Shown: in pieces, positions 9,228 to 57,266 of the stretch
How the letters are laid out: each line of letters opens with the position of its first letter
Position numbering within the stretch: the stretch's first letter is position 1
IMG/VR virus record: IMGVR_UViG_3300006990_000014
DNA: 64,000 nucleotides
Reading direction: 5' to 3' (one strand)
From: a virus
Notes under the pieces: generated by a model
Databases searched by the model: none
What the model saw: only the letters and a program-made list of their open reading frames with translations
Told to the model about the DNA's origin: nothing
Program-made: the position numbers and the translations under genes

Positions 9228-9234
9228 GGAAAAC

Positions 9235-12622: not shown

Positions 12623-12650
12623 ATTTAATTAATAATTATAATAATTATAG

Positions 12651-12658: not shown

Positions 12659-12671
12659 AAAGGAAAACATC

Positions 12672-13049
12672 ATGGAATATGATTTAGTATCAAACTTAGG
12701 CAATGCAATTGACAATGTATTTAACTATTCAAATGGTCAAGATAGTTCTAGAAAAACAGTTGCAAAACTTATTAACAATAAAGAAATGTCTATAACTTTT
12801 ATGTCTATTGTTAATGTTGCTAGAGAATCAGATTTACAAGTTCAAGTAGTTCATATAAATAAAGAATCCAATCACCACATTACAGCAAGACTCAACCGCA
12901 TAAAAAAAGAGTTTAAATCTTGTGCTGGTCGACCTTTAAAAACAAAAAAGATAGGTGAGTCAGATTCTTTTGAGGCAATAACAACAAGCTCATTTAGTCA
13001 TTTTAAAACTTACAAAGTTTGCTATACAAAGACTTTTGAGGTTTCTTAG
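12672..13049 (+). CDS. Hypothetical protein upstream of terminase
   Basis: 125-aa ORF with AAGGA SD; no recognisable motif. Confidence 0.6.
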   Translation: MEYDLVSNLGNAIDNVFNYSNGQDSSRKTVAKLINNKEMSITFMSIVNVARESDLQVQVVHINKESNHHITARLNRIKKEFKSCAGRPLKTKKIGESDSFEAITTSSFSHFKTYKVCYTKTFEVS

Positions 13050-13051
13050 TA

Positions 13052-14677: not shown

Positions 14678-14680
14678 TCA

Positions 14681-16687: not shown

Positions 16688-16688
16688 A

Positions 16689-17513
16689 ATGCCTAAGCAT
16701 CATAATAAAAAAAGAAATATTGGAATTATATATGAGCAAATTATAAATTTTGTCTCTGAGTGTTTAATTAACGAAAATAAAAAAGATGCTGAAGTTGCTA
16801 TCAATATTATTAAAAATAATTTTACTAAAAATAGTCAGTTATATAAAGAATATAAACTTTTCAAAGCACTATCAGATACACACCAAGTAACTGATCAATT
16901 GGCAACAATGATTATTACAGAAGCTAAATCTGCCTGTAATAATATGTTTAATAGTAACCAGCTAGAAAAAGAAAAATCTAATTTAATTAAAGAACTAAAT
17001 TATACATTCGGCAAAGGTACAATATTTAGTAAAAAAATATCTAACTATAGAATTTACGCCACAATCCAGACTTTATTAAATGAGTGGCGAGAAAATACAA
17101 ACAACTTTGATAAAACTACTGAATACGAAATTTTACTTCATGAAAGCTTAACAGAAAAAAGTCTAAAAGAAGAAAAAAAGCCTATTAAAGTTGATAAATT
17201 AACATATTCCTTGATGAAAGAAATATTTAAAAAGAAGTATTCTTCCAATCTTAATGAAGACCAAAATAAATTAATTTCTTTATATATAAACGAAGATTAT
17301 AAATCTTTAAGTGAAAATTATACTCTAATAAAGAAAAGAATTAAAAATTTCTTAGAAAATAAAATTGTGAGTCTAAATAATCAAATTATCTTAGAAAAAA
17401 AAGACAGTGTAATTAATAAAATAAAATTACTTAAAGAAAATGACTTTTCTAAAGAAAACTTGCAAAAATACTTACTGGCTTTAAAATTAGAAGAAGAAAT
17501 TTTAGGAGAATAG
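16689..17513 (+). CDS. Conserved hypothetical protein between portal and protease (possible prohead core protein)
   Basis: HHNKKRNIGIIYEQ N-terminus; occupies the position of T4 core genes; start placed at ATG 16689. Confidence 0.55.
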   Translation: MPKHHNKKRNIGIIYEQIINFVSECLINENKKDAEVAINIIKNNFTKNSQLYKEYKLFKALSDTHQVTDQLATMIITEAKSACNNMFNSNQLEKEKSNLIKELNYTFGKGTIFSKKISNYRIYATIQTLLNEWRENTNNFDKTTEYEILLHESLTEKSLKEEKKPIKVDKLTYSLMKEIFKKKYSSNLNEDQNKLISLYINEDYKSLSENYTLIKKRIKNFLENKIVSLNNQIILEKKDSVINKIKLLKENDFSKENLQKYLLALKLEEEILGE

Positions 17514-28467: not shown

Positions 28468-28845
28468 ATGAAATATCCAAAGTTTTACGAAAACAGCAGG
28501 TTGCCTGCAATATTAAGCAAATTTGCGCCTATTGACATATGGGCAATAACTTTAGGCCCATGGGTTTTTTGTCGAGGAGAGCTTGCTGAACAGACGAAGA
28601 GGCATGAAACAATACACTATTTACAATATAGAGAACTTTGGTTTATTGGGTTTTTACTTGTTTATCTATTTGATTATTTATGGGCTGCAGTTTTAAGCAG
28701 AAAAGGGTTTTCGCGTGAATCTTACCTTTCCATAAGGTTTGAGCAAGAAGCTTGGAACTGCGATGAATTTGAGGATTATATTGAAAAACGAGAAAAGTTT
28801 GCTTGGAAAAGTTATCCTTTAGGCGGCGCAAAGAAAGAAAGTTAA
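28468..28845 (+). CDS. HExxH zinc-metallopeptidase-like small protein
   Basis: RHETIHYLQ plus downstream FEQEA (candidate third ligand); hydrophobic helix in between. Confidence 0.55.
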   Translation: MKYPKFYENSRLPAILSKFAPIDIWAITLGPWVFCRGELAEQTKRHETIHYLQYRELWFIGFLLVYLFDYLWAAVLSRKGFSRESYLSIRFEQEAWNCDEFEDYIEKREKFAWKSYPLGGAKKES

Positions 28846-28847
28846 TT

Positions 28848-29375
28848 ATGCCATTTTTAAATCAATACCAAAAAAAAGAAAATAAAAGAAAAAGTATTAA
28901 TACTTCACCTTCAAAATCAGAAATTCAATTAGCAAAAGAAATTGGTATTGATTTAGGCAAAAGCTGGAATGCGTATTCAAAAGAAGTAAGAGTGCATATC
29001 TATGTTAAAAACATGCAAGAAATGGTTAGGTTTTATAATAAGATACTCGAGTTTCCTGTTGTTAGGTATTGGAGATATAGTGATGGCGATGGGACACAAA
29101 TAAATGTAGGAGGCAATCTTATTGAGCTTTTTTCTAAAGGTCCAAGAAACTATTCAAATAAAGCTTTTTATGGCAACGTATCATTATCAGTCAAAGTAAG
29201 TGATGTTTATAAGCTTTACGAAAAAATGCAAAAAAAGAATATTCAAATTGGTGAGTTAATAGAAAATCCTTGGGGAGATGCTTCGTTCCACATAACAGAC
29301 CCTGAAGGGAATCGTTTGGCTTTTTTTAGTCCGACAATATCTAAAGAAAAATATTACAAAGTTAAGAAAAGCTAG
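28848..29375 (+). CDS. VOC / glyoxalase / bleomycin-resistance family protein
   Basis: RVHIYVKNMQEMVRFYNKILEF, LIELF, VSDVYKLYEKM, ENPWGDASFHITDPEGNRL; start placed at ATG 28848. Confidence 0.8.
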   Translation: MPFLNQYQKKENKRKSINTSPSKSEIQLAKEIGIDLGKSWNAYSKEVRVHIYVKNMQEMVRFYNKILEFPVVRYWRYSDGDGTQINVGGNLIELFSKGPRNYSNKAFYGNVSLSVKVSDVYKLYEKMQKKNIQIGELIENPWGDASFHITDPEGNRLAFFSPTISKEKYYKVKKS

Positions 29376-29530: not shown

Positions 29531-29854
29531 ATGTGGTATGTTTACGTTTTGTTATGTGCTGATAATTCTCTTTACTGCGGTATAACTACAAATCTTCAAA
29601 AAAGATTAAAGCAGCATAACGGAGAGATCAAAGGAGGCGCCAAATATACTAGGGGAAGAGGACCTCATCGAATTGTGTATATAAAAAAAGCGATGAATCG
29701 CTCCATCGCTTCTAAGTTAGAATATCAATTTAAGCAGCTAAGCCGCAGAAAGAAAATTGATTATCTTATTCGTCACCCTCTGCCTCAGGATCTTCTTCAG
29801 ACTGCTCGCCAGCAGGAACTTCCTCTTCTCCCCCTACAGGATCTTCTTCAGTAG
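29531..29854 (+). CDS. Stand-alone GIY-YIG nuclease (UPF0213/SLX1-like)
   Basis: WYVYVLLCADNSLYCGITTNLQKRLKQHNG...GAKYTRGR...ASKLEYQFK. Confidence 0.88.
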   Translation: MWYVYVLLCADNSLYCGITTNLQKRLKQHNGEIKGGAKYTRGRGPHRIVYIKKAMNRSIASKLEYQFKQLSRRKKIDYLIRHPLPQDLLQTARQQELPLLPLQDLLQ

Positions 29855-35722: not shown

Positions 35723-36379
35723 ATGGCGCGTTTATTTATAGGACAAAAAGAAGTTGATTTTTTTGCTGATATTACCAAAGAGCTTATTAAAGACGTAGCA
35801 GGGCAAAAAATATATTACTATACAATTAGAGAAGATTTGAGTGACATACATGACGTTTACGAAGAGTCTGTCTATAAAATATTTAATCCTCCTGTTGAAA
35901 TAGAATGTCTTGTGGAATGGCAACCGTCTGAAGTTAAGACTACACAGTTTGGACATGAACAAATAAAAACAATTACAGTTTACATACATGATAGAGATAT
36001 TATCGACAGAAATCTTAACATTAGACAAGGTGACTATTTATCTTATGGTGAATTTTTCTTTGAAATAACATCACTCATATACGATAAGCTAGTTTACGGT
36101 CAAATTGAACGCGTTGCATCAATAAAACTTACAGCTAAGCAGGCACGTGCTGAACATATATTCAAGAATGCAATTGGACCTACATATGAAGGTTACACAG
36201 AAAAAGATGCAATTCAGACTACATTTAAACAGCAAAGAGGAACAACAGAAACTGATAAACGCCAGCTAAGAGAAGACGGTGTTTTAGAAGAACCAATTAG
36301 CGGTCCTAAAAAAGTAGCACCTGACGGCACTACAAAGAGTATTAATGGAATCGGGTCTTCTTTTTACGGAGATGAATAA
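35723..36379 (+). CDS. gp14: Neck protein 2 / head closure (T4 gp14-like)
   Basis: ELIKDVAGQKIYYY, DVYEE, IRQGDYLSYGEFFFEITS; position after gp13. Confidence 0.65.
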   Translation: MARLFIGQKEVDFFADITKELIKDVAGQKIYYYTIREDLSDIHDVYEESVYKIFNPPVEIECLVEWQPSEVKTTQFGHEQIKTITVYIHDRDIIDRNLNIRQGDYLSYGEFFFEITSLIYDKLVYGQIERVASIKLTAKQARAEHIFKNAIGPTYEGYTEKDAIQTTFKQQRGTTETDKRQLREDGVLEEPISGPKKVAPDGTTKSINGIGSSFYGDE

Positions 36380-37605
36380 TGGCAACAAGATTTGATAGCA
36401 ATACAGAACAAGATAACAAAGTAATATCAGGCTATGAAGACGAAAAGTCATATGACTATGTTATCCCGTCATGTGGTTTAGAAGATCTTGACTTCGCTGT
36501 CTTTTCTTTATTCGATAAACAAATACCTCTTTACTACGATCTTGAGGGAGAAACAAAAAAAGTCCCAGTTGTTTTTGCAACCGGTGAGAGATTTGCGCTC
36601 TTAAGAAGAAAAATGCCTATTACTGATAAAAGAGGCGCATTAATTCTTCCGCTTATTTCTATTTCAAGAGGTGCAATTGAAAATAATCCTTCGAAAGGAA
36701 TTGCAAATAATCAAATGTTTCCTGAAGTTGTTGCACGAAGAGTTGCTAGCAATAATGCCGCATGGCGACAGCTAAATAACTTTGAAGGCATTCAAAATCT
36801 TTCTTATACATCTAAAGAAAGCGATCTAAAAAATCCAAACTTTAGTTTAAAACCTGATCTTGAAAATAATATCTATGAAACCATAGAAATACCACCTGTA
36901 AAATACTTTGGTACGACATACGAGATTACTGTGTGGTCATCTTTTACGCAACAAATGAACAAACTATTGGAAACGATAATGAGCGCTTACACGCTTAATC
37001 CTGGTCAACAATTTAGAGTTGAAAGCCAGAAAGGATATTGGTTTCCTGCTTTTGTTGAAAGTTCTTTTTCGCAAGATACAAACTACGCAGATTATACAGA
37101 CGCGCACAGGTACATCAAATACTCGATGACAATATCTACAACAGGTTACATTCTTGCTCCTAATATACGAGGCGGAAAAGTAGGAATTAAGTCTCTTATA
37201 AGTGCACCAAAGTTTTCTTTTGAAGTTTTACAAAGTGCTAAAGATATTGATCCAAAAATCAAAGGAATTCCTGCAAATACTGCAGACGCTCGAATGTTGC
37301 TTGAAGACGTAAATAGTAATGACGGTTTTATTTCACAAATTACAGGTGTAACTGATATTGATAATTTACAAAATCTTTTAGAATATGACAAATCACATGC
37401 TTTTGTTGCAGAACCCGGCAATTTGCAAAAATATGATGCTGTTGCAGAAAAATATACAAACGAAAGAAAGCACACAAAAGTAAACGTAAAAGATCAAGAT
37501 GGAAATATCGTTAAAGTAAGAGCAGTTCAAAATACTTCAGGTGAAACAGTCTATGACGAAAAATATGCTGAATTAATTTTTAATATATCAAATAATGATA
37601 ATTAG
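36379..37605 (+). CDS. gp15: Tail terminator / sheath stabiliser (T4 gp15-like)
   Basis: VPVVFATGERF, LILPLISISR, TYEITVWSSFTQQMNKLLE; position before sheath. Confidence 0.6.
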   Translation: MATRFDSNTEQDNKVISGYEDEKSYDYVIPSCGLEDLDFAVFSLFDKQIPLYYDLEGETKKVPVVFATGERFALLRRKMPITDKRGALILPLISISRGAIENNPSKGIANNQMFPEVVARRVASNNAAWRQLNNFEGIQNLSYTSKESDLKNPNFSLKPDLENNIYETIEIPPVKYFGTTYEITVWSSFTQQMNKLLETIMSAYTLNPGQQFRVESQKGYWFPAFVESSFSQDTNYADYTDAHRYIKYSMTISTTGYILAPNIRGGKVGIKSLISAPKFSFEVLQSAKDIDPKIKGIPANTADARMLLEDVNSNDGFISQITGVTDIDNLQNLLEYDKSHAFVAEPGNLQKYDAVAEKYTNERKHTKVNVKDQDGNIVKVRAVQNTSGETVYDEKYAELIFNISNNDN

Positions 37606-37660: not shown

Positions 37661-40600
37661 ATGGCAGAGCAGACATTTAAGTCTCCAGGCTTTTTTGAAC
37701 GAGAAATTGAGATAATAAGCAGACCAATAAGCAGAACAAAAGCGACGCCTGTTGGAGTTATATCAACGTCAAAAAGAGGTCCTGCATTCGTACCCACTAC
37801 AGTTACATCTAGAGAAGAATATATTAGAATTTTTGGTGAACCTGACCCAAATAGACTCGGCGGTCATGCAGCAGCAGAATATTTTAGAAATAGCACAACT
37901 AACTCTGCACTAACTTTCTGCAGAGTTTTAGGCAGCGGACTCAAAAGCCAAGAAAACGCTGGATTTAAATTTACACCGAGAACTGATGCTGTTGGTGGCG
38001 GTACAGCCGGAAGGCTAATTGGTGCTTCTTATTTTCTTGCATCTACACACACGGTTAGCGCTGGAGAATGGCTTGGTTTAGGATCTATAAACGATAACGA
38101 CTCTTTTACTACAAATATGGACGATGATGGTGGCCCAAATGCTCCAAATGGTAACGATAATCTTGTCAATATAGTTAGAGCAATGATTATTACTCACAAA
38201 GACTACTCTATCATTCCTTTGCAAGAAGCTAGCGGATCTTTTACCGAGCAAATAAACAGCTATCATGTCAATCAAAATAAACTTTTTTACATTAGATTTA
38301 AAGATGATGCAGGCCAAGCGGGAGATAGTTTAGACTACGTTTTTTCTTTAGATCCAGGTAGCGACAAGTATATATCAAAGGTTCTTAATACAGATCCTTT
38401 TGCTTTAGAAAGTAAAAAGCATTTTCTCTACGCACATTTCCCTATTGATTCAGAAGTTGCAGAACCTGCTGCAAACTCGCCATATTCTCTTTTACAAGAA
38501 AAAACAGATGGCTTTGCAGGCGCTTTTGAAAACTTTGAGTCAAGATTTAAATCAGCAACTTCACCAATGTTTATTTCGCAACCTTTTGGTTCACGTGAAT
38601 ATGACTTGTTTCATTTCGATTCTTTGGACGACGGTGCTTACGCAAACGACAAATATAAAATATCTATATCTAACTTAAGAGCAAGCACAGATCCAACTGA
38701 TGAGTATGGAACGTTTACAGTTACAGTTAGAGATTTAAAAGATACAGATGAATCACCTATTATTTACGAAACATTCAACCAGTGTTCTTTAGATCCTAAT
38801 TCTAGCAACTTTATAAGCAGAGTAATTGGTGATCAAAAGGTATACTTTAACTTTGATGCTGCAAGCGAAAACGAAAGAAGACTTGTAAGAGAAGGTACGT
38901 TTAAGAACAATTCACAGAAAGTAAGAGTTGTTGTTAGCGATGCAATTATGCAAGGCGAAGTTCCAGCAAAAACACTTCCTTTTGGGTTTAGAGGCATTGA
39001 CGCTTTGCACTTTAATGCGACAGCAAAAGACTCAGACACCAATTACAGTCTTTTTGCAGTAGACTCGGGCGCCGGTGATGCTAAAGTTAACGAACTTTTA
39101 GATTCTATTTTGCCTCCTCTGCCTTATAGATTTAAAGTAACAAACGGTGACATTAGAACAAATCAATCTTACGAACAAACTTTCTTAGGTGATGCATCTC
39201 CGTCTGAAAGTGTTAACTTTGCTCTACACTGGGGTCTTATGTCTACACGCGTTTTAGACATTAATAATGCAAATAAAAGCACAGAGTTTAACGAGCTTCT
39301 TTCAAACTATACAAAGTTTTTTGGTGTAGATCAAACAGTGATTACTTCTGGCTCACTATCAGACAGTCATAATAACAATAAGTTTTCTTTGGCAAAGGTT
39401 GCTCTTAAAGGTGCTACTGTTAACGGAGTAACTGGGACAACAAACGATGTTTTTAAAAGCGCAGTTTACGTAAGAAATGCAGAAGTTTCTAATTCTGACG
39501 TTTATGACGCTTCAGCACATTTAATTAAAATGGGTGGAACTAATGACGATATTGATGCAGCTGACAGAGTTTCTTTAGCAAAGCTTTTAGCAGAAGACAC
39601 TTTAAAGTTTAACAAATATTCAGTTATGGCAAAGTTTACTGCACCGATGGGTGGTGGTTTTGATGGGTTAAACATCTTTGATAGAGACTCTTACTTTATG
39701 ACAGACAGAGCAGCTTCAGTTCATACCTCAACCACACCAAAAGGTAAAGGCGCTATTGAAGGATTTGAAAGTGGAATACATGGAACTTTAAAGGCTGACG
39801 TTGGTTCTGTTATGCAAGGTAGTGAAGACCTAAACAATGTTATTGCTTCTTATAAAAACGCGATCAGAATAATGACAGATGATCTCGTTGTTAATCATAA
39901 TGTCTTGGCTATACCAAATATTCGCGATAGATTTGTAACAGATCTCGTTAAGGATAGAATTGAAGAAGAGTATGGTAAAGCAATTTACTTAATGGACTTA
40001 GAGCAGTATGACAAAGATAGTAAAAGAGTTTTTGTTGATGCAAGAGGCACTGAGAGTTCAAAGCCTGACGTTGTGCTTACAGCTGGTGATTTTGATACTC
40101 GTGAAGTGGATTCATCTTATGTAGCATCTTACTTTCCGGACGTAAAAGTTTTGGATAGCGGTGACTCTGACGAAGCTGCTGTTAATTCTAGAAGATCTGT
40201 GTTGGTGCCTTCATCGATTGTTGCACTTGGTGCATTAGCTTTGACTGATTCCATTTCGCAGCCTTGGTTTGCTCCAGCAGGATTTTCAAGAGGTGCATTA
40301 GAATCTATTTCTTCAATTTCAGTTAGACTTAACGCTGAAGATAGAGATACATTGTATGAGTCTAGAATTAATCCAATTGCAAACTTCCCAAATAAACAAT
40401 TTGTTATATTTGGACAGAAGACAACACAGCTAAAGAGAACTGCACTTGATAGAGTTAACGTAAGAAGACTTGTTTTAGAGATTAAGAGAAGAATAGAGTT
40501 AATTGCGCAAGGTTTACTATTTGAGCAAAACAACTCAAAGACTAGAAATAGATTTATTTCTTCTGCTAGCAGTCAACTTGCAAATATTCAGATTAATCAA

Positions 40601-40762
40601 GGTATCGAAGACTTTAGAGTTATTATGGACGATACAAACAATACAGCACAGGACGTAGATAATAATAGACTTAACGGACAAATTGTTATTGTGCCTACAA
40701 GAGCTATTGAATTTATTGCAATTGATTTTGTAATTACTAACTCAGGTGTTGAATTTCCGTAA
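37661..40762 (+). CDS. gp18: Tail sheath protein 1 (T4 gp18-like)
   Basis: SPGFFEREI, RGPAFVP, PWFAPAGFSRG, INPIANFP, IFGQKTTQ, ALDRVNVRRL, PTRAIEFIAIDF. Confidence 0.92.
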   Translation: MAEQTFKSPGFFEREIEIISRPISRTKATPVGVISTSKRGPAFVPTTVTSREEYIRIFGEPDPNRLGGHAAAEYFRNSTTNSALTFCRVLGSGLKSQENAGFKFTPRTDAVGGGTAGRLIGASYFLASTHTVSAGEWLGLGSINDNDSFTTNMDDDGGPNAPNGNDNLVNIVRAMIITHKDYSIIPLQEASGSFTEQINSYHVNQNKLFYIRFKDDAGQAGDSLDYVFSLDPGSDKYISKVLNTDPFALESKKHFLYAHFPIDSEVAEPAANSPYSLLQEKTDGFAGAFENFESRFKSATSPMFISQPFGSREYDLFHFDSLDDGAYANDKYKISISNLRASTDPTDEYGTFTVTVRDLKDTDESPIIYETFNQCSLDPNSSNFISRVIGDQKVYFNFDAASENERRLVREGTFKNNSQKVRVVVSDAIMQGEVPAKTLPFGFRGIDALHFNATAKDSDTNYSLFAVDSGAGDAKVNELLDSILPPLPYRFKVTNGDIRTNQSYEQTFLGDASPSESVNFALHWGLMSTRVLDINNANKSTEFNELLSNYTKFFGVDQTVITSGSLSDSHNNNKFSLAKVALKGATVNGVTGTTNDVFKSAVYVRNAEVSNSDVYDASAHLIKMGGTNDDIDAADRVSLAKLLAEDTLKFNKYSVMAKFTAPMGGGFDGLNIFDRDSYFMTDRAASVHTSTTPKGKGAIEGFESGIHGTLKADVGSVMQGSEDLNNVIASYKNAIRIMTDDLVVNHNVLAIPNIRDRFVTDLVKDRIEEEYGKAIYLMDLEQYDKDSKRVFVDARGTESSKPDVVLTAGDFDTREVDSSYVASYFPDVKVLDSGDSDEAAVNSRRSVLVPSSIVALGALALTDSISQPWFAPAGFSRGALESISSISVRLNAEDRDTLYESRINPIANFPNKQFVIFGQKTTQLKRTALDRVNVRRLVLEIKRRIELIAQGLLFEQNNSKTRNRFISSASSQLANIQINQGIEDFRVIMDDTNNTAQDVDNNRLNGQIVIVPTRAIEFIAIDFVITNSGVEFP

Positions 40763-40801
40763 TATATAGTTTTATAGATTTAAAAATAGGAGACTAACAA
40801 T

Positions 40802-43800
40802 ATGTCTAATAGACAAGGCTCAGCAAGAGTTACACTTAATGAAATAGATAGATCAGACGTAAGTAGCTTAGAACAACTACCTGTTGGCGTTCCTGCAGCT
40901 GTTGTTGGGCCTTCACGTCGTGGACCGGCTTTTGTGCCTAAAACATTTGCGACAATGGAACAATTTAATAAATGTTTTGGCTCAATGCAAGAAGTTCACA
41001 AAGATAGCAACTCAAATAAGTTTGGACCTCTAGCACTTAACGAATGGATGCGCCAAGCACAAGCAGGTACTTATCTCAGAGTTTTAGGTGTAGGTGATGA
41101 CGCAGGTTTTGTTGTAGGTAATCAAGTATCATATGATGGTGACGATAAACTACAAGATAATCCACATGCCGCTAAAGAATCCGGAGAAGGCTTAATTGAT
41201 GGAGACACATATTTCCTAGGCTGCTTCATGAAAGATACAAACGAAAGCACATACTTAAAAGATTCAGGCGTCACAACAGAATCGACATCTGGTGTTTTGA
41301 CATATTCACTTAAAAACGGTGCACTTCCTACTATTGACGATACGTTTAAAATTAAACATAAAGATGATGTAGGTGTTGACGTTGAATCAACAATAACATT
41401 TGTTGCTTCTGCTGGAAACGCTAGCCAGTCAACAAAAGGAACAAAATCTGTTGAAAGTGTACGTAACTTAAGTCAAAAAATTGATGCACTTACCGACCTT
41501 ACAGCAACTTTTATTCCAACAAGATTTAGCGATGGAGAGATAGCAAAAGCAGACGCAATTCCTTTAAATGATGGTGGCGGTGATATCGCAGGCATTTTTG
41601 TTGGCGCTACATATAAAATTGTAAATATTAATGCAGGCGACATTGGCTTTTTTGCAAACATCAGCACTTTAGGCGCAGCAGAAGCCGCTGTGGGTGGCGA
41701 GTTTGTTCTTACAAGCACTGCCAACCAAGGCTTCAATGCACTCACAACTGTTAAGCTTGTAGAAGACTTAGATCAAGCTTCTTTAGAGATACGATCAATC
41801 CACTCAACACAGTTTCCTTCTTCTAATAGTTTTACAGTTGATTATAACATAACAAATTCAACTTCAGGAGGCTCAGAATCAGACATAACAGTTCAAGATG
41901 GAATAGCTTCTTCTGAAAGAGACTTTTTCTGGGGCTTAGATAACGCTGTTGCTGCTGAGTTTACAATTAGTTCTAGAGATGGTGTGAGCAAACCAAAAGA
42001 TGATACTTCGATAAAGTTTTTTGGGTTAAAAAATGAAGGTGATGGAACTTTTACAATTGACGGGAATCATGTAACTTATGAATTTGATGATACAGCAATT
42101 GCTGCAGACGTTGCAGGTGCTGACGATGTTGCAAATCGATATGAAGTTACAAGTGCAAATGCTGTTACAATATACAGCGGTGGAACTATAAAAGAAACAT
42201 TATTAAATCTTAAGTCTGCTATCGATAGAACATCAATAGATGATCATACTTTAGTGCATAGAGGATTATTTGAAACTACGATTTCTCCTAATGGATTAAG
42301 TTTAAGAATTGTAAGTGTCTATAAAGGCAACGCAGGCATTAAAAGGACAAACAACACTGGAAATATTGTGCTTAAAGGTGCTGTTGGTGAAAATAGTCTT
42401 ATTATAGAATGTGCATCAGATGCCGATACTAACTTAACGAATGGAACACAGCAAACTACTGAAGATTTTAATTTAGTATCTACACAAGGTGAAGAAGACA
42501 AAGTAAAGTTTATGAAAAATGGTAGAGACGCTGATCCTGTATCATTTGATTTATCACTATCAGGTCAACCTAATAACAATGATGTCTTAGAACTTCAAAC
42601 AGTTAATAATGCAGAGACTGATCAAATAGATAAAGAAAAAATCAAGTTTACTACAAGTAGTGCTGTGACAAATGCTTCGGTAAATACTACAGACAGTACT
42701 AAGGCAACAGCAAGCTTTAAGTTTAAAGGTAACGTTAGTGTTGATGGCAAAAACATAACAGCACTTACAGATCTAGAAGGTACAACTATTAACGTTGCTT
42801 TCGGCATAGCTGATGCAAATGTATCTTTTGATGTACCTTCATCAACTTTGACTATTGGTTTTGATGTTGCTAATGATTCAGATGCTAATCGAGCTACACG
42901 ACTAATTGCAGGATTTAATGATTTATCTAATCCATTAAAAATAACTGCTATTGCTGACCCCGGCAATGACCTTGATAAAGTTATATTCGAGCAAGACTTG
43001 ACAGGTGAGTATGGATCAGAAGTTGCAGATTTTGCTACTGACGCTGGCGTCAATGCGGAAATTACACAGTTTAGTGATAACAATGGATTAAGAGTTACAA
43101 ACTGTAAGATTGGCTCTGATATATTAGAGACGCTTTATAATCTTAAAAATTGTTTAATTTCCACATCAGTTCAAAACTTAAAAGATAACTTGGTATTGTT
43201 TGAAAGTGATAATGTCACACCGCTAGACATAGTATCAGATAGCGGCACCATTTCTTTACAACAAGCCTCAACTGAAAAAGGAGTAAGAGCTAAGTTAAAG
43301 AATAAGTTATCTGCGACAAGCACAGTGACTATTTCTAATAGTGAAGGTGAAGTTGTAGTTGGTAACTTTGGTAAAAAGCAAGAAAACTTTGTAGGCGGTG
43401 GCGGTGCAGCAGCTCCTTTAGTTAGAGGTGTCTTGATGGTGCCACAAGGCGTTGTTCCTGCTTTAGCAAACACGACATTTAATCAAGCAGATACTGATTC
43501 TCGCCTTAATGTTGCGGTTACAAGTAGCGGTGCGCTTAAAAACTTTGCTTCTCCAGACGTAGGAGACGATACAAAGTTAATTGGTTATGAGCTAGGAGAA
43601 ATAGCAGATGATACTCAAGCATTTAGTTTATTGTTAAATGGTTTTAACAATTCATCTGAATTAAATACTTTGTCTTGTTCTTTTGATCCAGAGAGCCCAA
43701 ATTACTTTGCAAAGGTTTTAAACACAGATCCTACAAAGATTGAAAAGTTAGGCCATTATCTATATCTAAATTGGGATATTGACAAAGCTTGTGCCGTTCC

Positions 43801-45808
43801 AAGTAATGATGGTGTTACAGCACCAAGTGGAGCTGCAATAGATGTTAATTACGCTTTCTGTAGTAAGGCTAGTGAAAACTATAGAACTTTTAGAGAATCA
43901 TTTAAGACTGCACAGTCACCTTGGGTTATTTCGCAAACTGATCAGGATTTATTTAAGGTATATGCACTTGACGATGGTGAAGTAGCAAATAGTAGATTTA
44001 GAGTTCAAATATCTGACTTAAAGCTTGGCAACTCTGCAAGTGATTATGCGACATTTACATTAGCACTAGAGAGATTTGACAGCGATCCTATTTCAGGCGA
44101 AGTAATTGCATCTTGGAGAAACCTTACTTTAGACCCTGATAGCAGAAATTATATTGCTAGAGTAATAGGTGATAAACACATTTATTATAACTTTGATGCA
44201 GCAGAATCCCGACAAAGACTTGTTGAAGAAGGAACTTACGATGTAACTAATGATTATATTAGAGTTGAGATGGATCCGTCTGTTGATGCTGGAGACATTA
44301 CATTTGTAACAATGCCCTGCGGATTTAGAGGACTTAGCTATGCACCACTTGCAATAGTAGAAAGTGGAACAGATGGAGATGGCGCAGGCAAGGTCGTGTC
44401 AGATGCTTCTTATGATAGACATCAAGTTTTACCGGTTCCTTATGTTAAATCAATAGCTAAGAAATCAGGTTCTTCTAAAGTTGCTGATGCAAAGCTTTCT
44501 TGGGGTGTTAAGTTTGCTAAAAAGACTAAGCGCGACGACGAGCCTAACGAGTTAACTGAAATAAGAACAAATACTAGTATGCCATCTTGGACAAAATTCT
44601 TGCCAAATTTAGTATCAGACTCTACAGCAGATACTCATCAAAACAGTAAGTTTAGCTTAAATAACATCTATCTAAATTTAGATTCTGATGGAGAGCTTGA
44701 CTGGTCAACTGCTGAGTATCGACGTGATGGTGAAGCAGGTTCTTTAACAACTCAATTAAATGTTGGAACACATGCTGTAGGTAAAAACTCTAGATATCTT
44801 AAGTTTAGATTTATGATGCAAGGCGGATTTGATGGATTAGATATCTTTAATGAAGAAAAATCTAAGATGAGTTCAGTAGCAGCATTTAGAGAAGCTAATG
44901 ATGAAACTGATAATGCCAAATTTACCGGTGTAACAGTGGATTCATATAAGAAAGCAATTGACGTATTAAGTGACAAGAGTGCAACTGAGTTCCAGCTTTT
45001 GGCAGTTCCAGGAATGCGTGAGCCTTTAATTACAGATTACGCAATTACAGCTTGCGAAAGCAGATTTGACGCGATGTTGTTGGTTGACATTGAAGAAGTA
45101 GCTGAGGGTAATACTTTGCCTACAACTGATGAATCATTACCTAATGTAGCGAATACAATTAATAGATTTAGAAACAGAAGTTTGGATACGTCATTTGCAG
45201 CAGCTTACTTCCCTAATGTAATTATTAGAAGACCTTCAAATGGAACGCCTGTTGAGGTTCCACCATCTGTAAGTATGTTAGGTGTTATGAGTCAAAACGA
45301 CTTCCTTGCAGACCCTTGGTTTGCTCCTGCAGGTCTTAGTAGAGGAAAGCTTAATGCTCTTAACTCAAAGGTGCAGATGAATCGCGACGTTCTGGATGAT
45401 CTTTATGATGAAGATATAAATCCAATATACGAACCATCAGGTCGTCCTGGCGAAGTTTATGCGTTTGGACAAAAGACATTGTTACAGAATCAATCTGCGT
45501 TAGATCGAATTAACGTTAGAAGGTTATTGATCAATGTTAGAAGAAGAGTTAAAGCAGTTGCAAACACGTTACTCTTTGAGCCTAATAGAGCATCTACTCT
45601 AGCTAAGTTTAGTGCGCTTGTTGAGCCAATTATGGCAGAAATTCAAGCAAGACAGGGTGTTGATAGATATAAAGTACAAATTGATACTTCTACAACAACA
45701 CAAAACGATGTTGAAAACAATACAATAAGAGGTAAGGTATACTTACAGCCTACTAAGTCTGTAGAGTTTATTTCACTTGACTTTGTTGTAACTAACTCAA
45801 TTGATTGA
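40802..45808 (+). CDS. gp18: Tail sheath protein 2 with about 700-aa insertion
   Basis: RGPAFVP, YLRVLGVG, PWFAPAGLSRG, INPIYEP, AFGQKTLL, ALDRINVRRLL, PTKSVEFISLDF. Confidence 0.9.
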   Translation: MSNRQGSARVTLNEIDRSDVSSLEQLPVGVPAAVVGPSRRGPAFVPKTFATMEQFNKCFGSMQEVHKDSNSNKFGPLALNEWMRQAQAGTYLRVLGVGDDAGFVVGNQVSYDGDDKLQDNPHAAKESGEGLIDGDTYFLGCFMKDTNESTYLKDSGVTTESTSGVLTYSLKNGALPTIDDTFKIKHKDDVGVDVESTITFVASAGNASQSTKGTKSVESVRNLSQKIDALTDLTATFIPTRFSDGEIAKADAIPLNDGGGDIAGIFVGATYKIVNINAGDIGFFANISTLGAAEAAVGGEFVLTSTANQGFNALTTVKLVEDLDQASLEIRSIHSTQFPSSNSFTVDYNITNSTSGGSESDITVQDGIASSERDFFWGLDNAVAAEFTISSRDGVSKPKDDTSIKFFGLKNEGDGTFTIDGNHVTYEFDDTAIAADVAGADDVANRYEVTSANAVTIYSGGTIKETLLNLKSAIDRTSIDDHTLVHRGLFETTISPNGLSLRIVSVYKGNAGIKRTNNTGNIVLKGAVGENSLIIECASDADTNLTNGTQQTTEDFNLVSTQGEEDKVKFMKNGRDADPVSFDLSLSGQPNNNDVLELQTVNNAETDQIDKEKIKFTTSSAVTNASVNTTDSTKATASFKFKGNVSVDGKNITALTDLEGTTINVAFGIADANVSFDVPSSTLTIGFDVANDSDANRATRLIAGFNDLSNPLKITAIADPGNDLDKVIFEQDLTGEYGSEVADFATDAGVNAEITQFSDNNGLRVTNCKIGSDILETLYNLKNCLISTSVQNLKDNLVLFESDNVTPLDIVSDSGTISLQQASTEKGVRAKLKNKLSATSTVTISNSEGEVVVGNFGKKQENFVGGGGAAAPLVRGVLMVPQGVVPALANTTFNQADTDSRLNVAVTSSGALKNFASPDVGDDTKLIGYELGEIADDTQAFSLLLNGFNNSSELNTLSCSFDPESPNYFAKVLNTDPTKIEKLGHYLYLNWDIDKACAVPSNDGVTAPSGAAIDVNYAFCSKASENYRTFRESFKTAQSPWVISQTDQDLFKVYALDDGEVANSRFRVQISDLKLGNSASDYATFTLALERFDSDPISGEVIASWRNLTLDPDSRNYIARVIGDKHIYYNFDAAESRQRLVEEGTYDVTNDYIRVEMDPSVDAGDITFVTMPCGFRGLSYAPLAIVESGTDGDGAGKVVSDASYDRHQVLPVPYVKSIAKKSGSSKVADAKLSWGVKFAKKTKRDDEPNELTEIRTNTSMPSWTKFLPNLVSDSTADTHQNSKFSLNNIYLNLDSDGELDWSTAEYRRDGEAGSLTTQLNVGTHAVGKNSRYLKFRFMMQGGFDGLDIFNEEKSKMSSVAAFREANDETDNAKFTGVTVDSYKKAIDVLSDKSATEFQLLAVPGMREPLITDYAITACESRFDAMLLVDIEEVAEGNTLPTTDESLPNVANTINRFRNRSLDTSFAAAYFPNVIIRRPSNGTPVEVPPSVSMLGVMSQNDFLADPWFAPAGLSRGKLNALNSKVQMNRDVLDDLYDEDINPIYEPSGRPGEVYAFGQKTLLQNQSALDRINVRRLLINVRRRVKAVANTLLFEPNRASTLAKFSALVEPIMAEIQARQGVDRYKVQIDTSTTTQNDVENNTIRGKVYLQPTKSVEFISLDFVVTNSID

Positions 45809-45810
45809 TA

Positions 45811-45818
45811 TATAAATA
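45811..45818 (+). promoter_or_regulatory. Candidate late promoter TATAAATA upstream of tail tube gene
   Basis: Exact T4 late consensus in a short intergenic gap before the AGGAG SD. Confidence 0.4.
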
Positions 45819-45844
45819 CATAAGAATTATTAGGAGAAAATAAA

Positions 45845-46333
45845 ATGCCAGAGACACTTTCAGTCACGGAAATGATTCCAAATAAGTTTGAGCCAAAAAG
45901 AAAGAATCGATGGATCTTGGCAATCGAAGGCATCGACGCTTTTCTTATTAAATCAGCTGCAAGACCTACATTCCAAATAGGCGAAACTGAAATCAACTTT
46001 ATTAATGCGAAAAGATACATCGCAGGTAAGATGACTTTTGATTCACTTTCTGTTACTATTCATGATCCTATTGCACCAAGCGGAGCTCAGCAAGTAATGG
46101 AATGGATTAGAACACACTACGAATCAGTTAGTGGTCGTGCAGGATATGCAGACTTTTATAAGCGCGATATTCAGCTTAAGATGCTTGACCCAGTTGGGAC
46201 TGTTGTAGAGCTTTGGGACATCAAAGGCGCATTTTTAACAAGTGCTGCTTACGGTGACCTTAGTTACGACGGTGACGATCCAACAGATATTTCTTTAAGC
46301 ATCAGGTTCGATAACTGCGTTCTACAATATTAA
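45845..46333 (+). CDS. gp19: Tail tube protein (T4 gp19-like)
   Basis: FEPKRKNRW, IAGKMTFDSLSVTIHDP, VMEWIR, YKRDIQLKMLDPVG, WDIKGAF, LSIRFD. Confidence 0.92.
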   Translation: MPETLSVTEMIPNKFEPKRKNRWILAIEGIDAFLIKSAARPTFQIGETEINFINAKRYIAGKMTFDSLSVTIHDPIAPSGAQQVMEWIRTHYESVSGRAGYADFYKRDIQLKMLDPVGTVVELWDIKGAFLTSAAYGDLSYDGDDPTDISLSIRFDNCVLQY

Positions 46334-46355
46334 TTAATTGATTCTGTCAACTTAC

Positions 46356-46405
46356 TTTTTGCATAAATAGTTATAAGCACAAAAAAAAAACTATTTATGC
46401 AGGAG
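46356..46405 (+). promoter_or_regulatory. Inverted repeat / hairpin occluding the SD of sheath 3
   Basis: TGCATAAATAGTT (46360-46372) is the exact reverse complement of AACTATTTATGCA (46389-46401); U-G/U-A pairs extend the stem over AGGAG (46401-46405). Confidence 0.65.
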
Positions 46406-46411
46406 ACTTGA

Positions 46412-49400
46412 ATGTCAAACAGAAATAATGCACAAATTACAGGCGACATAGTTACGCAAAGAATATTTCTAGAAGAAGAAACTATTTCTTTAACTGACGA
46501 AACGCTAAGTCTTGTCGGCACAGCAATGAGAGGCCCTGCTTTTGTTCCACAACAAGTCGTCTCTTTTGCGCAAGATTCTAGTATACTCAACACTTGGGAA
46601 AATATCTTTGGTGACTTTAATTTTCAAAAACAACATGCAAGCCCAATTTCTTCAAAAGTCTGGCTAGAAAATAACGGTAGTCAGCTTAGTTATACTCGAG
46701 TGTTAGGCGTAGGCAACGGTAGTTTTGAAAAAAATCAAGCAGGTGAATACGATCACGCAGGATTTACAGTCGGAAATCAAATTTTTTTTGACCCTAATGA
46801 ATATGCCGTTAAAAGCAGTAATGATTTAATTAACGGTTTATGCTATTTTGAAGGCAAATATGTTTCTGAAAGATCTTTTGTTGGGCCAGATGGACACGAC
46901 GATCAAGAAGTTGTATATACTTCTTCTTTTGAAAACTACTTTGATCAAATAGGACAAACAGATGACACAATAGGAATTATAACAAATGTTATATTTGCAG
47001 CACAAGGAATAAAGTTAGATCTACAAAAAGATTTGCTAGATGAGCTAGATTTAAGTCAAAAAAGGCAAGAACTAGGAACTTACCAGTCTGACAATCCTAG
47101 TGCAATCATCGAATCTGACATATCTTATCCTTACATTTATATTAAAGGATTGAGTGACTCGAGCAAAAGTATTATTGAAACGCCTCTTAAAACTGATTCT
47201 TATAAAAGATTTAGTATGTATGAAGACAAGTTAAATACAAGCAGTTATTTTAATTTAAACAGAGGCCACTTAAATTATTGCTCGTTTAGAGATATTGATT
47301 TATTTGATTATCCTAATGAGAAAACAAAAAAAGCTTCAACAGCATCATTTATAACATTTCAAAACTCAGCTGTCCAAGATGCTATTAACTATCAAAGTTT
47401 TAAAGATGTTTTTAGAAAAGCAAAGACGCCTTGGGTAGTATCGCAACCAGTCAATACAATACAGTCTTCAGACACTAGTAAAGAAAGTATATGGAAAGAG
47501 TGTGTTGAATTATTTAGATTTCATACTTATTCAGACGGTGAAGAAGGAAATAAATATAGATTTAGAATAACGCCTAAAAGATTAGGAAATTATAACAATA
47601 TAGATCCTAATAAGTTATATTCTAAGTTTGATGTTGAAGTTTTTTATTGTCTTAAAACTCAAAACAGATATAATTCTATTGCGAAGTATATTGATTTAAA
47701 CTTAAACCCAGAAAGCGATGATTATATTTGCAAGGTTATAGGCACTGAGCATGAGTATTATGATTTTGATTTAGGAAAAATAGTAACTGCTGGCAACTAT
47801 AAAAAAACAAATAATCATATTTATGTAGAAGTAACAAATGACGTTGAAGATAAAGTAATCCAAACAACTTTGATGCCTTCCGGCTTTAAAAACTATCCTA
47901 TTATAAACACAAACAATCTTCGTAAAAATACTAACAGCACACCGATTATTCAAAACCCAATGAGGTTTGCTGGAAATAGACAGATTTTAAGATTTGAAGG
48001 TATAAAACCTATTTTTAAAGAAGATGCATCGTGGGGCGTGCTATTTGATCAGACAGAGTTAACTAAAGTCAGAGACGTTTTAGTAGATGGTGAAAATTAT
48101 AATTTTATAATGGAATTATACAACGATAACGTAACAAATAGTTTTGATCAAGCATCACAATATTCAAAATATTTTAGTAGTTATAGAGACGAATATAGTG
48201 TATGGAAAGAAGAACTAGATCAAAATACCCAATATAACTTCTTTCATCTAGAAAAGATTTTATATAACGCCGCAGATGATATAAACGTTTCAAAAAGATG
48301 GGACTATTCATTTTACAGAAGAGATGGTAAAGATATATCTCAAATTACATCGTTAGATGAAAAAAATAATTTTAAATATGTGGATATAAACAAGCTTCTT
48401 TATTCAAACGACGAAAATTATTCTGATAATCATTTGTTTCTTTCTTTTGACTTTTTTAGTTATGGTGGCTTCGATGGCGTTAATATTTTAGATTATTATA
48501 AAAAAGACATGTCAGGATTTTCTGTGGCAAGAGAAACAAATAATGCTGCAGATCCAAATGCAGAAATGCAAACCACAGAGATTTATAGAACTGCATATAA
48601 AATTGCAACAGAAGAGACAGATTGTAGAGTTGATTTGTTTTGCATGCCAGGAATATCTTCTCAAAGTTTGATTAAAGAAATTGTAGACTTAGCAGAAACA
48701 AAAAGAAGCTTTAATTATATATTTGATGTTCCTGAAATTGTTACAGGTTCAAAGCAAAGAGACAAATCTTATTACTTTTTAGATTTTAATAATAGACCTA
48801 GTGATTTACTAAACTTTGATGAAACAGTCAAAGATGATCTAAATGATATTAGTAATATAAACGAGACAATTAATAATTTTAAATTAATGTCTATAAACTC
48901 AAAATATAGTCTAGCTTTGTACAATTATTGTGAGGCTGTAGTTTCAAATGAGTTTAATGTTGAAATTCCTCCTAGCACTGTTTATCTTAAGTCACTCTCA
49001 AAGTCACAATTAGCTCAACCTATAGCAACAGTAAACTATGATAATACTGATGACACACTTTCAGTAAGTTCAACTTTAAACATGCAATTTAAGTTTAATT
49101 GTAATAATTTTGATAGTTTACTTAAGCAGACAAAAAGCTTTGATTGTAGTATTAATCCTATAGGTCTAATGAGTCAAAATAGATTTGTAAAACCTCTTTC
49201 TTCTAATACTTTAAGTACAAATAATAGATCTGTATTTAGAAGTTTTCATAATATTAGAATTTATCATGATATAACTAGAAATCTTAGAAATATATTATTC
49301 ACAGCTCCTTTAATAAATGGCTCGCCTATGTTATTCTCTCCTAATACTATAGATAGTAATGATAATAGAGTAGATGTTAATTTATTTTTAAGTTTAGATG

Positions 49401-49639
49401 AATTTATGTTAAGCTACGTTGATAGAGAAATAATAAATGATTATTATGTTAATACTGTAAAATTAAATTCAGAAAGAGCTAGACAACAAAAGTTTAGAAA
49501 TGAGTTTAGCGGAGAGATAGGTATTAACTTTAAAGGTTCACAAAGTAGTGATTTATTTAATTTAATAAGCACAAATAATTTACTAAACTTTGTTAACAAT
49601 TTTGAAGAAGATAATAATATAATAATAGAATCTGTATAG
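46412..49639 (+). CDS. Divergent tail sheath paralog 3
   Basis: LVGTAMRGPAFVP, YTRVLGVG, TPWVVSQ, LNLNPESDDYICKVIG, GGFDGVNI shared with sheaths 1 and 2; C-terminal polymerisation motifs degenerate. Confidence 0.8.
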   Translation: MSNRNNAQITGDIVTQRIFLEEETISLTDETLSLVGTAMRGPAFVPQQVVSFAQDSSILNTWENIFGDFNFQKQHASPISSKVWLENNGSQLSYTRVLGVGNGSFEKNQAGEYDHAGFTVGNQIFFDPNEYAVKSSNDLINGLCYFEGKYVSERSFVGPDGHDDQEVVYTSSFENYFDQIGQTDDTIGIITNVIFAAQGIKLDLQKDLLDELDLSQKRQELGTYQSDNPSAIIESDISYPYIYIKGLSDSSKSIIETPLKTDSYKRFSMYEDKLNTSSYFNLNRGHLNYCSFRDIDLFDYPNEKTKKASTASFITFQNSAVQDAINYQSFKDVFRKAKTPWVVSQPVNTIQSSDTSKESIWKECVELFRFHTYSDGEEGNKYRFRITPKRLGNYNNIDPNKLYSKFDVEVFYCLKTQNRYNSIAKYIDLNLNPESDDYICKVIGTEHEYYDFDLGKIVTAGNYKKTNNHIYVEVTNDVEDKVIQTTLMPSGFKNYPIINTNNLRKNTNSTPIIQNPMRFAGNRQILRFEGIKPIFKEDASWGVLFDQTELTKVRDVLVDGENYNFIMELYNDNVTNSFDQASQYSKYFSSYRDEYSVWKEELDQNTQYNFFHLEKILYNAADDINVSKRWDYSFYRRDGKDISQITSLDEKNNFKYVDINKLLYSNDENYSDNHLFLSFDFFSYGGFDGVNILDYYKKDMSGFSVARETNNAADPNAEMQTTEIYRTAYKIATEETDCRVDLFCMPGISSQSLIKEIVDLAETKRSFNYIFDVPEIVTGSKQRDKSYYFLDFNNRPSDLLNFDETVKDDLNDISNINETINNFKLMSINSKYSLALYNYCEAVVSNEFNVEIPPSTVYLKSLSKSQLAQPIATVNYDNTDDTLSVSSTLNMQFKFNCNNFDSLLKQTKSFDCSINPIGLMSQNRFVKPLSSNTLSTNNRSVFRSFHNIRIYHDITRNLRNILFTAPLINGSPMLFSPNTIDSNDNRVDVNLFLSLDEFMLSYVDREIINDYYVNTVKLNSERARQQKFRNEFSGEIGINFKGSQSSDLFNLISTNNLLNFVNNFEEDNNIIIESV

Positions 49640-49651
49640 CAGGAGTACTTA

Positions 49652-50494
49652 ATGAATAATCTTGATAAGCCGCTAGACGCTGCAGAAATTGCAGACAGCA
49701 GCCCAATTAAAAAAAATAATGTAATGTTAGATGACTTTGGCTTTGAACTAGCTATTGAATCTGTTCCACTTCCTTCTAGAGGTGTTATATACTCTGAAGA
49801 TAAAGGTATTTATGATACTGAAACTTTAGATATTAAACCTATGACAGCTAAGGAAGAAGATATTCTTACTTCTAGAGCTTATATTAAGAACGGAACAGTG
49901 ATTTCAAAACTAATCAAAAGCTGTTTAGTCGACAAGTCAATTGACCCCGACGATCTAATATCAGGTGACAGAAACGCTTTATTAGTCGCGCTAAGAATTA
50001 CAGGATACGGTGCTGATTATGAGCTTGACATAAATTGTCCTGCTTGTAGTAAGTCAAATAAGTCAACTTTTAATTTGTCTGAATTAAAGATTAAAAGATT
50101 GCAAGTAGAGCCAGATGTTTTAGGTGAAAACGTTTTTAATGTTGTCTTACCTGTAACGAAAAAGAATGTTAAAGTTAAGTTTTTAACTGGTCATGACGAA
50201 AAAGAAATGATGATTACAAATGATCGAAAGAAAAAGAGCGGTTTAAATACAGACAATAGCGTGACTGATCGCTTAAATAGATCTATTCTACAAATTGAAA
50301 ACATTAAAGATAAAAACAAGATTAAACTTTTTGTTCAAAACATGCCTGCAAGAGATTCTTTGGCGCTTAGAAGATTTTTGGATAACCACGAGCCTGGTGT
50401 TGATATGAAAGCAACTATGGAATGCACCCACTGCTTCGAAGAAAGTGAGGTTGAGTTGCCAATCGGACCTACATTTTTTTGGCCTGACGCCTGA
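49652..50494 (+). CDS. Baseplate hub assembly protein / tail assembly chaperone (T4 gp26/gp51-like)
   Basis: VPLPSRG, IKPMTAKEEDIL, GDRNALLVALRITGYG, CPAC and CTHC pairs, ends FFWPDA; directly upstream of tape measure. Confidence 0.8.
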   Translation: MNNLDKPLDAAEIADSSPIKKNNVMLDDFGFELAIESVPLPSRGVIYSEDKGIYDTETLDIKPMTAKEEDILTSRAYIKNGTVISKLIKSCLVDKSIDPDDLISGDRNALLVALRITGYGADYELDINCPACSKSNKSTFNLSELKIKRLQVEPDVLGENVFNVVLPVTKKNVKVKFLTGHDEKEMMITNDRKKKSGLNTDNSVTDRLNRSILQIENIKDKNKIKLFVQNMPARDSLALRRFLDNHEPGVDMKATMECTHCFEESEVELPIGPTFFWPDA

Positions 50495-50702
50495 AAATAA
50501 AGACATTGTTTTAGAACAAATATATGTCTTAATGCAACATTTAAGTTTTTCTTATGCAGACGCATATAAATTACCTATTTGGAAAAGAATATGGTTTATA
50601 AGAAAACTTAAGACAGACTTAGAAAAACAGTCTCAGCAAAACAATAATCCTTTACCCCAACAAAGCAAAAGAGCAAATAACATGTTTAAAAAGTCTTTTT
50701 AG
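50475..50702 (+). CDS. Frameshift extension of the tail chaperone (second chaperone ORF)
   Basis: Open frame FFGLTPENKDIVLEQIYVLMQHLSFSYADAYKLPIWKRIWFIRKL begins in the T7 run 50474-50480; no SD-linked ATG. Confidence 0.65.
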   Translation, partial: FFGLTPENKDIVLEQIYVLMQHLSFSYADAYKLPIWKRIWFIRKLKTDLEKQSQQNNNPLPQQSKRANNMFKKSF

Positions 50703-54048: not shown

Positions 54049-54318
54049 ATGTTTGAAAAAGTTAAAAAATTAGATTTTAAAAAAAATGAGAGCACAAAAG
54101 AAATAGTTTCTGGCCTAGCAACTTTATATATGGAACTTTTTAAAATGTCAAAAGAAGATGCTGAAAGTCTTGTTGAGAAAAAAATGAATTATTTTAAAGA
54201 TGACTTTATAGAAAAAGTTGAAAGTGCAAAACAATATGATTTTAATAAAAATCATAAAAGCTATGAAGAAGTTAACACTGAAGACTATTTAACAGGTAAA
54301 ACTGTAATTAAGGGTTAA
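54049..54318 (+). CDS. Hypothetical protein
   Basis: 89-aa ORF with AAGGA SD. Confidence 0.55.
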   Translation: MFEKVKKLDFKKNESTKEIVSGLATLYMELFKMSKEDAESLVEKKMNYFKDDFIEKVESAKQYDFNKNHKSYEEVNTEDYLTGKTVIKG

Positions 54319-56990: not shown

Positions 56991-57266
56991 ATGGAAAAGT
57001 ATAAATTAGTTAATGACACTGAAGTCAATATTTCACCTTATATATACAAATCTGTTAACAACGAAGAGATAGATTATGATTTAGTTATTACGCAAAGTGG
57101 TAAACGACTAGATCACTATGCATATGATTACTATGAAGATGGATCTTTGTGGTGGATAATTGCTGCAGCTAGTGGTGTAGGTTGGTGGTTACAAGTGCCT
57201 GAAGGTGTTGTTTTAAAGATACCTTTAAACTTAAGTGATATAGAACAAATAAAGGATAGTATTTAA
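56991..57266 (+). CDS. LysM/Tail-X-like baseplate wedge protein (gp53-like)
   Basis: GKRLDHYAYDYYEDGSLWWIIAAASG...VPEGVVLKIP. Confidence 0.8.
   Translation: MEKYKLVNDTEVNISPYIYKSVNNEEIDYDLVITQSGKRLDHYAYDYYEDGSLWWIIAAASGVGWWLQVPEGVVLKIPLNLSDIEQIKDSI

Follow-up and report, generated by a model that had tools for sequence, protein, structure and literature searches.

Three paralogous tail sheath genes around a single tail tube gene in an uncultured jumbo phage

The viral DNA analysed here (IMG/VR record IMGVR_UViG_3300006990_000014; the whole stretch of 64,000 nucleotides is referred to as the window) encodes three tail sheath proteins, Sheath 1 (S1), Sheath 2 (S2) and Sheath 3 (S3), with a single tail tube gene located between the second and the third. 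That all three are real sheath-fold paralogs is virtually certain, and the three-sheath locus is a real, conserved and previously undescribed arrangement that resembles both the two-component phage sheath and the three-paralog sheaths of extracellular contractile injection systems (eCIS). Judged from their sequences, S1 and S2 are probably both subunits of the sheath trunk. For S3 the balance tips slightly towards a specialised, low-copy subunit of the virion. The complete account, in which S1 and S2 form the trunk and S3 is a low-copy subunit with a position of its own, is the best explanation that we can offer, and we hold it tentatively, at a little less than an even chance. The four genes concerned are the following.

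37661..40762, + strand: S1, 1033 residues, canonical tail sheath (PF17482, E 1.5e-9; PF04984, E 1.5e-7; phrog_23, E 1.8e-54).
40802..45808, + strand: S2, 1668 residues, canonical tail sheath with a large lineage-specific insertion (PF17482, E 1.1e-6; phrog_23, E 7.3e-42).
45845..46333, + strand: tail tube protein, 162 residues (phrog_4542, E 1.9e-27; weak PF06841 match).
46412..49639, + strand: S3, 1075 residues, complete sheath fold with a degenerate C-terminal domain, no family-model match.

A preliminary description of this stretch had claimed three open reading frames (ORFs) of 1033, 1668 and 1075 residues with five motifs in common, and coordinates, lengths and motifs are all exactly as claimed: RGPAFVP, RVLGxG, P(W/M)x(I/V)SQ, LxL(D/N)PxSxx(Y/F)Ix(R/K)VIG and GGFDG occur in each protein, the last at residue 665 in S1, 1341 in S2 and 685 in S3. 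BLASTP relates S1 to S2 with an E-value of 3e-100 (31% identity over 819 columns), S2 to S3 with 5e-35 and S1 to S3 with 4e-19, and the tube gene is the sole gp19-type gene recognised in the cluster, so that the picture of three paralogs around one tube gene holds good. S1 and S2 score 38.2 and 29.1 bits against the Pfam sheath C-terminal domain PF17482, above its gathering cutoff of 26.9 bits, and a profile of the S1 family matches T4 gp18 at 5e-37. As had also been described, both keep the C-terminal motifs WFAPAG (residues 869 and 1506) and NVRRL (933 and 1571) and end in the EFI C-terminus; the counterparts in S3 are AQPIATV, HNIRIY and a differing C-terminal tail.

Searches with sequence models pass S3 by. 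It has no match in Pfam or PHROG, and so does not reach the Pfam gathering score for sheaths, and a profile of 42 S3 orthologs found no match among PDB sequences. When families are aligned with HHalign, the S3 profile (42 sequences, A1) matches the S1 profile (29 sequences, A2) with a probability of 100 and E 6e-89, residues 32–1039 of S3 falling on residues 31–1011 of S1. Within the C-terminal domain INPIG of S3 is equivalent to INPIA of S1, N-I-R on the long helix to N-V-R-R, and LFSPN to LFEQN, and the PWFAPAG loop and the last strands are the only truly replaced parts of the core. The earlier statement that S3 has lost its C-terminal core is thus right for that loop and those strands, and wrong for the domain as a whole, which by profile alignment and fold is degenerate but complete. 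An AlphaFold2 model of S3, made from a 42-row alignment, has a mean predicted local distance difference test score (pLDDT) of 80.9 and a predicted template modelling score of 0.84. Contractile sheath proteins account for every one of its best 50 Foldseek matches in the PDB, and structural alignment to the solved sheaths reaches residue 1041. We conclude from the model that the sheath fold of S3 is complete and comprises the conserved inner core made of N- plus C-terminal parts; the possibility, raised in the preliminary description, that S3 lacks such a fold is not borne out. The fold of the window sheaths is also that of T4 gp18, phiKZ gp29 and the sheaths of KP1, P1, phage 812 and R-pyocin.

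Two other explanations of S3 were tried and rejected. It is not a gene with a frameshifted canonical C-terminal domain, as in-frame homology, fold and ortholog conservation all hold, nor is it a decaying pseudogene, given some 50 intact, syntenic orthologous clusters. Since Pfam, PHROG and PDB sequence searches miss the S3 family, genes of this type are now annotated as hypothetical.

A search with S3 returned ∼50 clusters of full-length orthologs (24–93% identity, none with a Pfam match), followed by canonical sheaths of ∼1017 residues; the S3 clusters are intact and have 49 invariant columns in common. Gene order was examined in five relatives with S3 orthologs (contigs L004, L005, L006, L007 and L008), and one contig beyond these carries S3 at 93% identity. 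All five have the order S2, tube, S3. S1 and the gp13–gp15 genes lie upstream in four of them, the fifth contig (L008) being cut inside the gene upstream of S2, and the PF12322 gene comes next after S3 in all four that extend past S3. Orthologs of S1 were found in L004–L006 and in two further contigs, L012 and L013. The S1 ortholog of L007 (3418–6187) is called as two ORFs of 604 and 313 residues, which may be a real split or an assembly frameshift.

The preliminary description had proposed a phylogeny against phage and eCIS sheaths, of which the phage part was run, as maximum-likelihood trees of 22 and 27 rows. S1, S2 and S3 together form one clade apart from other phage sheaths (99/99), and therefore the triplication arose within the lineage of the window phage. 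Each of the three is monophyletic (100/100), and the S2-type clade is supported at 100/99. In both trees S3 groups with the window-clade S2 as its sister (98/100 with 22 rows, 90/89 with 27 rows). Its stem measures 1.4–1.5 substitutions per site, and its tips are 2–3 times longer than the tips of the other two sheaths. As a caveat to these trees, the tree software flagged the S3 rows for their long branches and heterogeneous composition. Read in this way, the trees make S3 a fast-evolving offshoot of S2.

The contigs L012 (324.5 kb) and L013 (204.7 kb) carry S1 orthologs at 41–42% and S2 orthologs at 38–40% identity, and no S3 was found on either, so that the duplication separating S1 and S2 is older and more widespread than S3. 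By this comparison it predates the split from L012 and L013 and is shared with other phages of 200–325 kb. Two successive duplications would account for the locus, the first parting S1 from an S2-type gene and the second parting S2 from S3.

Extra sheath genes are found elsewhere among these phages. In L013 the tube is preceded by three successive sheath genes (6893–16309), namely orthologs of S1 and of S2 and an independent S2 duplicate, and a 568-residue gene on the minus strand is inserted before the tube. The third copy is 50% identical to the S2 of L013 and nearly canonical (SFSAPAG, RINVRRM); a common origin of this copy and S3 is rejected by the approximately unbiased test (p 0.009). 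The metagenomic phage LR756508 (L001, 484 kb) has two canonical sheath genes of 824 residues, ∼1 kb apart (11479–17442). The interval holds a 96-residue coiled-coil-like ORF, and the two sheaths fall on separate branches of the tree, one with that of Microcystis phage Mel-JY01 and the other beside that group. The pairs in L012 and L013, the third copy of L013 and the two genes of LR756508 indicate that multi-copy sheaths are a recurring trait of related large phages, and a third copy has arisen on more than one occasion. L012, L013 and LR756508, which are uncultured phages of 200–480 kb, have no degenerate paralog of the S3 type downstream of the tube, and neither has Mel-JY01 in the tail region examined.

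Distinct differences are seen in the way the paralogs are conserved. Orthologs are 53–64% identical to the window protein for S1, 46–52% for S2, 28–40% for S3 and 67–85% for the tube, and over the C-terminal 200 residues the values are 70–80% for S1, 72–86% for S2 and 23–35% for S3. The C-terminal domain is thus where S1 and S2 are conserved best and where S3 is conserved least, the profiles being inverted. The strongest constraint in S3 falls on residues 1–100, 400–500 and 650–700; its N-terminal 50 residues are among the best conserved in the S3 family, yet unlike those of S1 and S2, and the C-terminal tail differs as well. In solved sheaths, the C-terminal domain touches the tube and exchanges strands with neighbouring subunits. 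A rapidly evolving inner domain without the WFAPAG loop, a distinct N-terminal arm and translational control of its own, described below, are the reasons for which S3 appears most likely to be a low-copy, position-specific subunit. Its long tips in the trees, its background-like composition and a weakness of sequence signal that recalls Pvc4 of PVC fit such a role indirectly.

The same pattern could arise if S3 had been exapted as a sheath-fold protein of the virion outside the helical lattice, at the baseplate periphery, in the collar, as an outer decoration or as a dock for fibres, anchored through the conserved domains at its N-terminus and middle. The best-conserved segments, at the N-terminus, 400–500 and 650–700, would then be those that matter, with the domain that makes the tube and handshake contacts the least conserved and its WFAPAG loop and last strands replaced. 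However, the C-domain fold, the INP strand and the N-x-R face on the long helix are kept throughout the family, which suggests that an inner contact persists, and no known example of such an exaptation was found in the literature searched. We regard this reading as unlikely.

Composition also sets S3 apart. Its GC content is 0.293, compared with 0.370 for S1, 0.372 for S2, 0.403 for the tube and 0.44 for the major capsid protein, and its third-position GC of 0.19 and Gly+Ala content of 7.4% are like those of the replication and large hypothetical genes and unlike those of the abundant structural genes. Good Shine-Dalgarno sequences precede all four genes (S1, S2, tube and S3). For the three sheath genes, this is what would be expected of a three-component lattice in which S1, S2 and S3 are all major subunits in comparable amounts, and the three canonical-looking sheath genes in a row in L013 would agree with it. 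A major subunit should nevertheless keep a constrained C-domain, as S1 and S2 do (70–86% identity) and S3 does not (23–35%), and neither the composition of S3 nor the hairpin that precedes it is that of such a subunit. A lattice of this kind therefore has little probability in our view.

The hairpin lies between the tube gene and S3.

46360..46402, + strand: hairpin upstream of S3, 13-bp stem (fold −18.6 kcal/mol, z −3.9).

Its 3′ arm runs into the Shine-Dalgarno sequence of S3, and its 5′ arm carries the promoter-like sequence CATAAATA. Hairpins that pair with the ribosome-binding site are present at the same place, with differing sequences, in L004 (9938–10000), L005 (9928–9996) and L006 (9953–9997), with z from −4.1 to −5.5; the element is thus kept by structure in four of six loci, being weaker in L008 and absent from L007. 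Its position suggests that it uncouples translation of S3 from the tube message, and, should S3 be a dedicated first-ring subunit, masking of the Shine-Dalgarno sequence would set, at translation, a stoichiometry of ∼6 copies versus several hundred. The motif CAT(A/T)(A/T)ATAGTTAT occurs inside or beside the hairpin in the window, L004 and L008, and from these occurrences may be a late promoter of the window clade.

Fast evolution, a background-like composition and separate translational control could mark a protein that acts outside the virion, either an assembly factor that caps or templates S1/S2 polymerisation or prevents polysheaths, or a redundant copy drifting towards loss. Decay is argued against by the ∼50 intact clusters at 24–93% identity, their 49 invariant columns and the fixed position of the gene in all five relatives, and the reading as a whole is improbable.

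Textbook phage tails have one sheath protein, and a single sheath protein is present in every solved phage sheath matched by the S3 model; to our knowledge, bacterial injection machines (PVC and Afp) are the only structures known to have three sheath proteins with positions of their own. In PlPVC1, Pvc4 is confined to the first sheath ring, which sits on the baseplate adaptor, and Pvc2 and Pvc3 alternate along the trunk, Pvc3 bearing an extra outward knob thought to dock fibres (PMC12546770). The Afp sheath is polymerised from Afp2, Afp3 and Afp4 (PMC12961389). Like these systems, the window has three sheath-fold paralogs in one locus with the tube. Unlike these eCIS, it belongs to a capsid-bearing phage, with terminase, portal, prohead protease and major capsid genes, and its sheaths are 3–4 times larger (1033–1668 residues versus ∼350–470). 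The S1-family profile matches Pvc2 and Pvc3 at 1e-11 to 1e-13 and Pvc4 at only 6e-5 and 1.4e-3. Since the match to Pvc4 is so much weaker, the C-domain of this first-ring paralog seems to have diverged from canonical sheaths more than those of the other two, and in the same way S3 is the weakest sequence match to canonical sheaths in its own locus.

The PVC comparison also bears on which end of the tail S3 might occupy. As a terminal ring at the neck, under the gp15-like terminator encoded in the same cluster, S3 would show the same rate and conservation pattern, which any position-specific end ring would explain. In PVC, however, it is Pvc2, an ordinary paralog, that builds the apical end, and the specialised one sits at the baseplate (PMC12546770), and in the window S1, S2 and the tube gene all lie between S3 and the gp15-like gene. 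A neck-proximal ring is accordingly very unlikely. By analogy with Pvc4, we place S3 specifically in the first, baseplate-proximal ring as a possible assignment, one that stands clearly below an even chance.

Among phages, the closest likeness is with Pseudomonas jumbo phage PaBG, which, according to the statement in PMC7412058 that cites Kurochkina et al. (2018), has a ‘unique two-component tail sheath’ whose two proteins were both detected in the virion proteome; they, of ∼58 kDa each, are encoded far apart (gp76 and gp213) (PMC7412058). Some phage genomes encode two sheath copies (PMC9230969). Like PaBG, the window phage is a jumbo phage with two canonical sheath paralogs from duplication, S1 and S2. 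Unlike PaBG, for which that account describes no third paralog, it has the degenerate S3; the two phages are of different lineages. In phiKZ a small initiator, gp62, adjoins the first sheath ring (PMC13250141). The structures of KP1, phiKZ, P1, phage 812, R-pyocin and T4 contain one sheath species, of which the first ring, adjoining a small initiator, is made as well, whereas the window has three sheath genes, one of them undetectable by sequence models. No description of three sheath genes in one phage was found in the literature on phage tail sheaths searched.

Taking these comparisons together with the gene data, we propose that S1 and S2 would most likely assemble together into a two-component trunk that surrounds the single tube protein, much like the sheath of PaBG or the alternating Pvc2 and Pvc3 layers of PVC, with S2 in part of the clade adding a variable outward insertion on the surface. 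S3, derived from S2, would be made in smaller amounts under its own translational control and would enter the virion at a unique position, where its inner domain would face partners other than the ordinary tube and neighbours. That position would most probably be the first ring on the baseplate, as for Pvc4 in PVC. In its most specific form, a true phage with a dedicated Pvc4-like first-ring subunit that arose by duplication of a trunk gene on top of an older two-component trunk, the proposal is doubtful.

Several observations weigh against the proposed role of S3. The gene lies between the tube and the PF12322 and tape-measure-type genes, which is the territory of the trunk module and not specifically of the baseplate, and neither a gp25-type sheath initiator nor a gp48/gp54-type tube initiator was recognised within the window. 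S3 was found in no cultured relative, and in Mel-JY01, the nearest cultured phage, the 26-kb tail region examined contains a single sheath gene and a single tube gene. As proxies for abundance, composition and evolutionary rate are weak, and the fast-evolving C-domain fits a loss of lattice contacts equally well. Finally, the terminal arms of S3, residues 1–15 and 1047–1075, are modelled at pLDDT <50.

Whatever the role of S3, the set of three sheath paralogs is stable across a widespread clade of uncultured giant phages, and a wider group keeps two. If S3 is indeed a dedicated first-ring subunit, position-specific sheath rings are not peculiar to eCIS, and contractile tails of great length or size would have arrived at them repeatedly. 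As a dedicated end ring, S3 would show how sheath assembly starts and stays in register in very large tails, and would provide a natural example useful for engineering contractile nanomachines.

The length of S2 ranges from 988 to 1668 residues among relatives because of a single insertion site. The window, L004 and L008 have a long insertion there and L005 a short one; L006 and L007 have none.

41249..43441, + strand: variable S2 insertion, approximately residues 150–880.

This segment is very fast-evolving and is present or absent among close relatives. It has no Pfam match (E up to 1), a protein atlas gave nothing telling, and only 3 homologs were found in 5.8 billion proteins; comparison with itself by BLAST found no internal repeats. 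The AlphaFold2 model of the insertion, from a 5-row alignment, is unusable (pLDDT 36.7). Its sequence behaviour fits a surface-exposed module, possibly one for host interaction.

The window is a low-GC (∼31%) block with all large genes but one on the + strand, and includes T4-like myophage structural and replication genes (primase, an SbcC-like protein, large terminase, portal, prohead protease and major capsid protein). The exact S3 protein is also present on a contig of 277,787 bp, and relatives lie on contigs of 237.5 and 239.5 kb, from which we conclude that the source is an uncultured jumbo phage. The nearest cultured phages, Mel-JY01 (31% sheath identity) and Rhodothermus phage RM378, are distant, as is LR756508. 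The tail module of the window runs in the order gp13, gp14-position ORF, gp15-like gene, sheath and tube, which is a T4-like context. The gp13-position protein has a weak head-tail adaptor match, and its orthologs in relatives belong to the Phage_T4_gp13 family. Other features near the sheath genes are these.

36379..37605, + strand: gp15-like tail sheath stabiliser/terminator, 408 residues, directly upstream of S1 (PF16724, T4-gp15_tss, E 1.2e-7, 31.7 bits against a cutoff of 25; weak phrog_227).
45811..45818, + strand: T4-type late-promoter-like TATAAATA, an exact match, 27 nt upstream of the tube start codon.
49652..50494, + strand: T4_baseplate hub-type protein, 12 nt downstream of S3 (PF12322, E 9.1e-18; phrog_150 baseplate hub, E 1.5e-22).

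The gp15-like gene occupies the same place in those relatives whose contigs cover that stretch. The 1087-residue ORF that follows the PF12322 gene may encode the tape measure, by analogy with the gene order of Flavobacterium phage immuto. The octamer TATAAATA has 21 matches in the window, with 10.4 expected, and exact copies stand just upstream of three genes, at 12651 (+), 28009 (−) and 45811.

Between the capsid and neck modules are a glyoxalase-family gene (28803–29372; PF00903, E 7e-15) and a free-standing GIY-YIG nuclease gene (29531–29851; PF01541, E 1e-18). Downstream of S3, small ORFs of 85–91 residues (50445–50702, 54049–54318 and 56991–57266), which have no credible Pfam match, alternate with giant ORFs of 1087, 888 and 1531 residues, and the same alternation is seen in the relatives.

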